UHGV virus genome: UHGV-0175557
Length of the DNA: 43,714 nt
Strand: one strand, 5' to 3'
From: a virus
The position numbers and the translations under genes are program-made. This document shows positions 9,629 through 9,988 of the stretch, in pieces. Numbering within the stretch: the first letter of the stretch is position 1; each line of letters begins with the position of its first letter. The notes beneath the pieces were generated by a model, which made no database searches, was not told the DNA's origin, and was given only the letters and a program-made list of their open reading frames with translations.

Positions 9629-9988
9629 ATGCATTACAAACCGTATTACGTTATCAAAAAAGACGATGATGACGATGAAGAGGAAGATGTAGAAATTCAT
9701 CACCATCATCATTATCACCACGGGCATCACCCGGACACGATGGGAGTATTTCATCATGATAGCTATGCTGGCGAACATGATTCAGTTATGGCCCATGTTA
9801 AAGCACGTATGGATAACCCTCCTTCGACTTGGGCGTCGTACCACGATAAGCCCGGCGGGATGATGTCCATTGTTGAAATGGAATATCGCGAACTGATGGA
9901 AGAAAAAACTGAAGGTTCGACGTCTGGTATTAAAAAAGAGCTAACGGATCTGGCTGCAGCCTGTATCCATGCACTTAAAAAGATGTAA
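9629..9988 (+). CDS. His-rich acidic protein; C-terminal half has a MazG-like E..E/E..D pattern (119 aa)
   Basis: ATG 9629 with AGGAG upstream; DDDDDEEED then HHHHHYHHGHH; EMEYRELMEE...KKELTD. Confidence 0.6.
   Translation: MHYKPYYVIKKDDDDDEEEDVEIHHHHHYHHGHHPDTMGVFHHDSYAGEHDSVMAHVKARMDNPPSTWASYHDKPGGMMSIVEMEYRELMEEKTEGSTSGIKKELTDLAAACIHALKKM

Follow-up and report, generated by a model that had tools for sequence, protein, structure and literature searches.

Small stand-alone MazG-like proteins are common in phages, and the canonical types with which we compare the protein described here, i.e., E. coli MazG, SSO3215, MazZ of phage S-2L, cyanophage MazG, HisE (PRA-PH), and the dimeric dUTPases, are all-α proteins that carry the motif ExxE-x(12-28)-ExxD on two adjacent antiparallel helices. 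Histidine-rich tails are the hallmark of another group of proteins, the nickel metallochaperones UreE, HypB, SlyD, and CooJ. A protein of about 90 amino acyl residues from the archaeon Archaeoglobus fulgidus, AF_0060 (PDB entry 2P06), has been placed by the SCOP curators in the superfamily of all-α nucleoside triphosphate (NTP) pyrophosphohydrolases, the metal motif being common to both (PMC2238974). The subject of the present study is gene B, which lies at positions 9629-9988 of a stretch of 43,714 nucleotides from the virus genome UHGV-0175557 (the whole stretch is referred to as the window) and encodes a small three-helix domain preceded by an acidic and histidine-rich tail. B is a minimal three-helix AF0060-like variant and not a canonical MazG, and its gene is the second of a conserved, mobile, and phage-restricted cassette, A-B-C(-D). 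Whether B acts within this cassette as a metal-dependent pyrophosphohydrolase is, in our judgment, an evenly balanced matter.

The window belongs to a Sashavirus/9NA-like siphophage of E. coli; the 1.6 kb tested (positions 9000-10600) are about 97% identical to phage KarinMuster (Bas82). The features of gene B are the following.

9616-9620, plus strand: Shine-Dalgarno sequence AGGAG of gene B, read from the sequence, 8 nucleotides before the ATG at 9629
9629-9988, plus strand: gene B, 119 amino acyl residues, ATG start; N-terminal strand-like segment, acidic/His-rich disordered tail, and three-helix domain
9629-9661, plus strand: B residues 1-11 (MHYKPYYVIKK), a short hydrophobic segment flanked by basic residues, putative docking strand
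9662-9688, plus strand: B residues 12-20, acidic run DDDDDEEED, read from the sequence
9698-9730, plus strand: B residues 24-34, His run HHHHHYHHGHH, read from the sequence, with only synonymous changes relative to phage Sergei
9761-9985, plus strand: B residues 45-119, three-helix domain (helices 45-62, 77-95, and 98-118) with a PxTW loop (P65, T67, W68)
9881-9892, plus strand: E85-x-x-E88 in helix 2, preceded by M84, first half of the metal-binding motif, aligning with the ExxE of AF_0060
9938-9949, plus strand: E104-x-x-D107 in helix 3, second half of the metal-binding motif, aligning with the ExxD of AF_0060

Relationship of B to AF_0060 and MazG Proteins

The original prediction, made from the DNA letters alone, had described a poly-histidine/acidic protein whose C-terminal half resembles MazG-type NTP pyrophosphohydrolases. 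In a first sequence search of the PDB the best match was AF_0060 (2P06, E 0.017), a score that was partly an artefact of the crystallization His-tag, which aligned with the natural His run of B. Because the tag had inflated this score, the tail was removed from later profiles. A narrow, tag-free domain profile (A2) found 2P06 at only E 0.2, and a broad domain-only profile built from 104 diverse members (A3, hmmsearch of the PDB) placed 2P06 at the top with E 8.5e-4, followed by the MazG SSO3215 and then by a HisE. Other top PDB matches, i.e., His-tagged fusions of G-protein-coupled receptors, DC-SIGNR neck repeats, and the de novo protein WA20, were rejected as artefacts of composition or repeats. 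An HHalign comparison of the phage family (A3) with the AF_0060/MazG family gave a probability of 94.9% and an E value of 4.3e-8 over 68 columns. When the 104 members were scanned one by one against Pfam, PRA-PH was matched by 15 of them and MazG by seven, every other family matching at most two; the seven MazG matches were sub-threshold, with a best E value of 2e-4. In BFVD, the best match outside the family is a phage NTP pyrophosphohydrolase.

AF_0060 and B share the order of helices, a PxxW loop before helix 2, ExxE in helix 2, ExxD in helix 3, a Cys five residues after the Asp, and their small size. AF_0060 differs from B in being archaeal and in lacking an acidic or His-rich tail, the histidines of the PDB chain being the crystallization tag. 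It also keeps the full EExxE, whereas 177 of 186 members of the phage family have Met at the first position, and it passes the Pfam MazG threshold (30.4 bits versus a cutoff of 22), which the phage protein does not; the few homologs of AF_0060 are named MazG by their sources. As the identity between B and AF_0060 amounts to only 18-25%, B is a distant relative. It displays the bundle fold, the ExxE-x(12-28)-ExxD motif, and the sequence homology of the all-α NTP pyrophosphohydrolase superfamily, the motif being complete in B and its subfamily and only partly so in the family at large. The gathering threshold, the four-helix core, and the EExxE of a strict MazG (PF03819) are all missing. With 2P06 as the closest protein in sequence and structure, the domain of B appears, on sequence grounds, best placed within or beside the AF0060-like family of SCOP. 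The MazG idea of the original prediction was therefore largely right at the level of fold and superfamily, with the metal-site tetrad kept in the subfamily, and fails at the level of MazG proper, where the Pfam threshold, the fourth helix, and the first Glu are wanting. Likewise, the profile search proposed for it gave nothing when B was scanned directly and succeeded with the family profile, in which 2P06 is found and PRA-PH and MazG recur.

A Conserved Metal-Site Motif

The AlphaFold2 (AF2) model of the three-helix domain is confident, with a predicted local distance difference test (pLDDT) score of 88-97. In an alignment of the 42 close homologs obtained in the first search, the N-terminal half is variable and the C-terminal domain strongly conserved, P65, W68, I81, M84, E85, E88, L89, E104, L105, L108, A109, A111, and A115 being invariant and D107 nearly so. 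The E..E/E..D pattern that had been noticed from the letters is thus real. Its form in B, E85xxE88-x15-E104xxD107, has the spacing of MazG/HisE metal motifs, its 15 intervening residues lying within the range of the canonical types. Since the distances on either side of the turn at residues 96-97 match, the helix register of the model implies that E85/E88 and E104/D107 should face each other.

Across 186 members of the wider family, Glu is found at position 85 in 183, at 88 in 178, and at 104 in 145, the last position being occupied by Asn in another 24. Position 107 is His in 103 members and Asp in 75, so that one or the other is present in 178. The commonest tetrads are EEED (70 members), EEEH (67), and EENH (23); B from the window belongs to the EEED clade and has all four carboxylates intact. 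Judged from sequence, this pattern seems to indicate a conserved metal site more clearly than a conserved Mg-dependent NTPase.

The Acidic and Histidine-Rich Tail

The DDDDDEEED run followed by HHHHHYHHGHH and further histidines, as originally read, was found again in the plus-strand open reading frame (ORF) at residues 12-20 and 24-34. Within residues 1-49 there are 12 His, nine of them in residues 24-34, and 13 Asp or Glu; further His occur at positions 42, 43, 50, 56, 72, and 114, and the net charge of the whole protein is about -11. AF2 predicts residues 1-44 to be disordered (pLDDT below 56). With His making up 1.4% of the residues in the long ORFs of the window, the probability of at least nine His in a given 12-mer is about 3e-15, and about 3e-10 such cases would be expected over all six frames of the window. 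The codons of the runs are mixed (CAT and CAC for His; GAT, GAC, GAA, and GAG for the acidic residues), and because they alternate the runs are not a slippage repeat. A comparison of the window with phage Sergei shows only synonymous substitutions in the acidic and His runs, non-synonymous ones starting just downstream; the amino acid sequence of the runs is therefore subject to purifying selection. The concern that the His run might be poorly conserved is thus not borne out within the subfamily.

B is a real gene encoding a real protein. It matches phrog_9157 (PHROGs, E 5e-46; function unknown) and corresponds to Bas82_0003 and to gp20 of Sergei, both annotated as ‘hypothetical’. An exhaustive hidden Markov model search of 1.84 billion representative proteins yielded relatives in 193 clusters at 50% identity, and B is present in 115 annotated phage genomes, nearly all of which label it ‘hypothetical’. 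The GenBank record of phage Bas22 (QXV82367.1) already names it ‘putative pyrophosphatase’, and a MazG-like reading is for that reason not new. On the opposite strand, an antisense ORF (9611-9778, minus strand, 55 amino acyl residues) contains many Met, Val, and Ile because it reads the His and Asp codons in reverse complement; it is not a gene.

Nearly all family members share a three-part layout consisting of an N-terminal hydrophobic segment with flanking basic residues (for example MHYKPYYVIKK, MRYLLVLHK, or MEIITIKKH), a variable low-complexity linker, and the conserved domain. A hydrophobic run of at least four residues flanked by a basic residue is present in 111 of 159 complete members, and most of the others alternate basic and hydrophobic residues. 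If a His run is defined as at least six His within 12 residues, 33 of 173 members have one, and 29 of these 33 belong to the ExxD clade. The two kinds of run are strongly coupled, an acidic one being present in 20 of the 33 as compared to 3 of the 140 members lacking a His run. On a neighbour-joining tree the trait proves labile, having been gained or lost at least 17 times, and the composite ‘acidic run, V-x-I, His run’ recurs among members whose domains are only 45-50% identical. In the member P0010, another tail type is joined to a window-like domain, showing that tails recombine independently of the domain, and other lineages have different linkers, such as the long tails with EMRRRSRS repeats of P0161-type members. 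The His tail is thus an optional addition that selection maintains. The ExxD/ExxH split together with the repeated gain and loss of tails suggests that metal specificity or availability matters for the module. Members of the ExxH type (P0066, P0102, P0106, and others) often have a C-terminal ‘MTC’ and a ‘KPKDW[AE][FY]’ just before the domain.

The A-B-C(-D) Cassette

In the window, gene B is embedded in the following plus-strand group, a setting overlooked in the original prediction.

8726-8743, both strands: terminator-like GC-rich palindromic hairpin after the large terminase gene (terminator scan), upstream boundary of the cassette
8880-9578, plus strand: gene A, 232 amino acyl residues, phrog_9288 (E 3e-123), function unknown
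9589-9611, plus strand: stem-loop in the A-B gap with a stem of 9 bp (AAGCGCCUC/GGGGCGCUU) and a weak U-tract after it, resembling an attenuator or terminator
10005-10523, plus strand: gene C, 172 amino acyl residues, an α+β protein, phrog_8329, function unknown
10510-10764, plus strand: gene D, 84 amino acyl residues, overlapping the end of C, phrog_7239, function unknown
10937-10956, plus strand: intrinsic terminator with an 8-bp GC stem and a T-run (terminator scan), closing the cassette

In iterative profile scans of 38 B-encoding loci from unrelated phages, B immediately follows A in 36 and is immediately followed by C in 35; D is present in 24. Of the two loci without an A call, one is cut by the end of the contig and the other (L029) has a Gly-rich A-like protein missed by the profile. 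The order is the same in a 58.7-kb metagenomic phage, where A is 35% and C 32% identical, and orthologs of A in unrelated phages show 35-36% identity. The cassette occurs at five different kinds of genomic location. It adjoins genes for a PIF1 helicase and DNA polymerase A in one phage, forms an isolated plus-strand island in a Yersinia phage (C 45% and D 32% identical), follows the genes for the lateral tail fibre and the S74 chaperone in Bas06 (Drexlerviridae) and Bas22 (Seuratvirus), and precedes endolysin and holin genes on one contig. A scan of 185,579 representative genomes of bacteria and archaea gave no ExxD-type relative of B.

Gene A codes for a Gly-rich N-terminus (GGLIGSWFGNGWGG), a Q/N-rich body, a CC(C) motif at C152-C154, and a C-terminal GCC; C153, C154, R168, and L170 are each conserved in at least 90%. 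In Bas22, a fibre-like protein that carries the self-cleaving intramolecular chaperone Peptidase_S74 (E 1e-14) is continued by an A that is 78% identical to the one of the window; this fusion (L010, 3280-4812) contains the same Gly-rich linker as A of the window. A is present in 179 annotated phage genomes, if fragments in T5-like phages are counted. Such fragments occur in the T5-like Salmonella phage vaffelhjerte (L012, 3752-4342), where part of the matched region is unannotated, and in Epseptimavirus they are situated just downstream of tail genes, with B, C, and D absent. GenBank labels for A are inconsistent (‘lateral tail fiber chaperone’, ‘putative sugar-binding protein’, ‘tail fiber protein’). 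A marginal ricin-B match of A (E 0.1), probably the source of the ‘putative sugar-binding’ label in BASEL phages, was not accepted.

Phage 9NA has lost part of the cassette. A deletion has left its gp12 (62 amino acyl residues; L003, 4881-5069) as a remnant that over residues 1-34 matches the N-terminus of A with 88% identity. The remainder of A and the whole of B are gone, and C and D are kept as gp13 and gp14. A and B are consequently dispensable for a viable phage. In a metagenomic protein of 73 residues (P0054), the N-terminus of A (MSDMTLLPTGGGFGG...) is followed by the second half of the B domain; this protein is either a natural deletion or an assembly artefact across the A-B junction.

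A Hairpin Between Genes A and B

Operons are known in which the gene for an abundant product is followed by a leaky terminator hairpin and then by accessory or maturation genes. The cassette may be comparable, with a GC-rich hairpin directly after A and before B-C-D in seven of seven lineages tested; the stem sequences differ and a U-tract often follows. The hairpin of the window folds with -17 kcal/mol (z-score -2.8), and across the seven lineages the values range from -17 to -20 kcal/mol, with z-scores of -2.8 or lower in five of the seven. In Sergei it is annotated as a terminator. The window differs from the known operons in that its U-tract is weak and its own terminator scan does not call the hairpin. 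We infer that A may be made in excess over B-C-D, as the hairpin suggests. The A-B hairpins elsewhere are located as follows.

L011, 4850-4904: A-B hairpin
L010, 4810-4886: A-B hairpin
L004, 5968-6003: A-B hairpin
L007, 5953-6003: A-B hairpin
L013, 4448-4517: A-B hairpin
L031, 3851-3925: A-B hairpin

Possible Functions of B

The reading that we prefer, at about even confidence, is that B is a metal-binding AF0060-like protein of the MazG superfamily that serves as a dedicated component of the A-B-C(-D) cassette and performs a pyrophosphohydrolase-type step. According to this proposal B would oligomerize, as AF_0060 and MazG proteins do, and the site formed by E85, E88, E104, and D107 would bind ions of the Mg/Mn type or transition-metal ions. 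The His/acidic tail might capture or buffer metal ions, the N-terminal segment might dock to a partner from the cassette, and B would then carry out the metal-dependent pyrophosphohydrolase-type step needed by the module; the catalysis and its substrate are the most conjectural parts. Because A and C accompany B almost without exception, we favor a role specific to the module over a general cleaning of nucleotide pools. A number of points weigh against this proposal. Direct scans with B of the window find no Pfam family at E ≤ 1 and no NCBIfam model. Met84, which by the alignment with AF_0060 and from general knowledge of MazG proteins occupies the position of the first Glu of EExxE, is present in 177 of 186 members, and in the AF2 model the protein ends at residue 119 after three helices, the fourth helix of a canonical MazG being missing. 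The D107H and E104N variation would not be usual in a MazG whose catalysis depends on Mg; a generic site, possibly one for transition metals, accounts for it as well as an enzyme does. AF_0060, the nearest relative, is itself uncharacterized, so that the homology provides no substrate. Nothing in the module points to nucleotide chemistry, no fold match was obtained for gene C, and the module is not strictly obligate, since 9NA has lost A-B and C is missing from both L027 and L029, the latter with no more than an A-like neighbor. In addition, SCOP gives AF0060 a family of its own on account of a distinct subunit fold, tetrameric unit, and active-site architecture (PMC2238974).

Alternatively, B may lack catalysis and serve the Cys-bearing A, or the lateral tail fibres, as a metallochaperone or assembly factor, the MazG fold being reused as a metal-binding scaffold; we regard this as a serious possibility, to which we give clearly less than even weight. 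Here the tail would harvest Ni, Zn, Fe, or Co, the metal being held transiently by the E/E/E/(D or H) site, and the N-terminal strand would dock to the client. The exchanges D107H and E104N in the family suit a metal site better than a conserved Mg-dependent catalytic one. By analogy, UreE, HypB, SlyD, CooJ, and Hpn resemble B in having a disordered terminal segment with at least 10 His in about 15-40 residues and a folded domain with its own metal site, and by composition the tail of B would qualify as His-rich in the same sense. Metal ions are well known in the tips of phage fibres, for example Fe bound by His in gp37 of T4. The gene for A, with its Cys pair (conserved in at least 90%), is situated upstream of the hairpin, which would agree with an excess of A over B-C-D. 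In Drexlerviridae and Seuratvirus, genes for the lateral tail fibre and the S74 chaperone are next to the cassette, with the A-S74 fusion in Bas22. The Ni/Zn metallochaperones are nevertheless unrelated to B in sequence and fold, no genes for urease, hydrogenase, or CO dehydrogenase are located near B, and B differs from them in being phage-encoded and in pairing its His run with a poly-Asp/Glu run. No match to a chaperone domain was obtained in Pfam or NCBIfam, and the neighbors A, C, and D are not metalloenzyme maturation genes. As 140 of 173 members do without a His-rich tail, a harvesting tail is not essential to the function of the family; the cassettes of Sashavirus, the Yersinia phage, L007, and L038 are not near fibre genes, and A as a metal binder or part of the virion is conjectural.

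The reading of the original prediction, a free-standing NTP pyrophosphohydrolase that cleans or modifies nucleotide pools or acts on alarmones independently of its neighbors, agrees with membership in the MazG superfamily, with the intact ExxE...ExxD of the subfamily, and with the frequency of small stand-alone MazG-like proteins in phages. It leaves the near-absolute synteny with A and C across unrelated phages unexpected, and we consider it unlikely. B differs from canonical MazG proteins in its A-B-C setting, which in the 38 loci was never one of nucleotide metabolism, in its three helices as compared to a four-helix core, in the absent first Glu, and in having His for Asp in more than half of the family, so that the motif is degenerate in much of it. 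B is also not the only candidate nucleotide pyrophosphatase of its phage, since the closest relative carries a separately annotated dUTPase, Bas82_0019 (L001, 8732-9235; approximately 15503-16051 of the window, minus strand). Less probable still, and in our opinion very unlikely, is a cassette for anti-defence or superinfection exclusion, in which B would degrade an immune signalling nucleotide or sequester the metal of a defence nuclease. Exclusion genes are often encoded beside receptor-binding genes, and the cassette adjoins fibre genes in three lineages; its variable location, the loss of A-B in 9NA, and the negative scan of representative bacterial genomes are in keeping with a mobile accessory island. 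Against it, no homology to known anti-defence proteins was found, and in PADLOC A, B, and C have no match and D has only weak matches to the ATPase region of GajA (E 0.004-0.01, about 57 residues), which are probably spurious. Finally, that the His/Asp runs are meaningless low-complexity expansions in a dispensable ORF, or the ORF an annotation artefact, can practically be discounted. The predicted disorder of the tail, the lability of the trait, and the exchange of tails apart from the domain in P0010 would agree with it, whereas the purely synonymous substitutions within the runs relative to Sergei effectively refute it, and the recurrence of the composite motif at 45-50% domain identity, the strong ribosome-binding site, and the conservation in 115 phage genomes also contradict it.

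More tentatively, and as a rather doubtful extension, A-B-C-D might be an undescribed, horizontally mobile, phage-restricted module in which B matures, loads with metal, or regulates an abundant Gly-rich and Cys-bearing A, A itself being linked in evolution to self-cleaving (S74) lateral tail-fibre proteins. The N-terminal strand would tether B, which in one clade would use an acidic/poly-His tail for harvesting metal. If true, the MazG fold would here serve a new purpose, apart from the sanitation of nucleotide pools, and more than 100 well-studied coliphages, BASEL phages included, would possess a new accessory system; the module could also bear on the engineering of host range, should lateral tail fibres or host recognition prove to be its target. 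In the searchable literature, no description was found of the AF0060-like assignment, the ExxD/ExxH split, the selected acidic/His tail, or the mobile A-B-C-D cassette and its intergenic hairpin, and the BASEL papers are silent on these genes. The AF0060-like assignment offers a testable biochemical handle for B and provides a biological context for 2P06, an orphan fold from structural genomics. What began as a single curious ORF is now a defined four-gene system open to dissection by deletion, carried by genetically tractable phages of a model collection (BASEL Bas06, Bas22, and Bas82), and 9NA offers a natural A-B deletion for comparison. A literature search for virion proteomics of Seuratvirus yielded plant papers only, and a 2026 ISME J paper that includes a MazG-like gene concerns an unrelated phage.

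Other Features of the Region

On the plus strand upstream of A, the promoter scan detected no σ70-like promoter. Between D and the terminator, a small ORF at about 10779-10942 corresponds in position to Bas82_0006 and to gp15 of 9NA (about 54 amino acyl residues) and may be a fifth gene of the cassette. Upstream of the cassette, the ORF of the large terminase (6729-8717) starts with GTG and encodes 662 amino acyl residues, whereas relatives annotate 1764 nucleotides (587 amino acyl residues); the true start is probably located about 75 codons downstream of the GTG.

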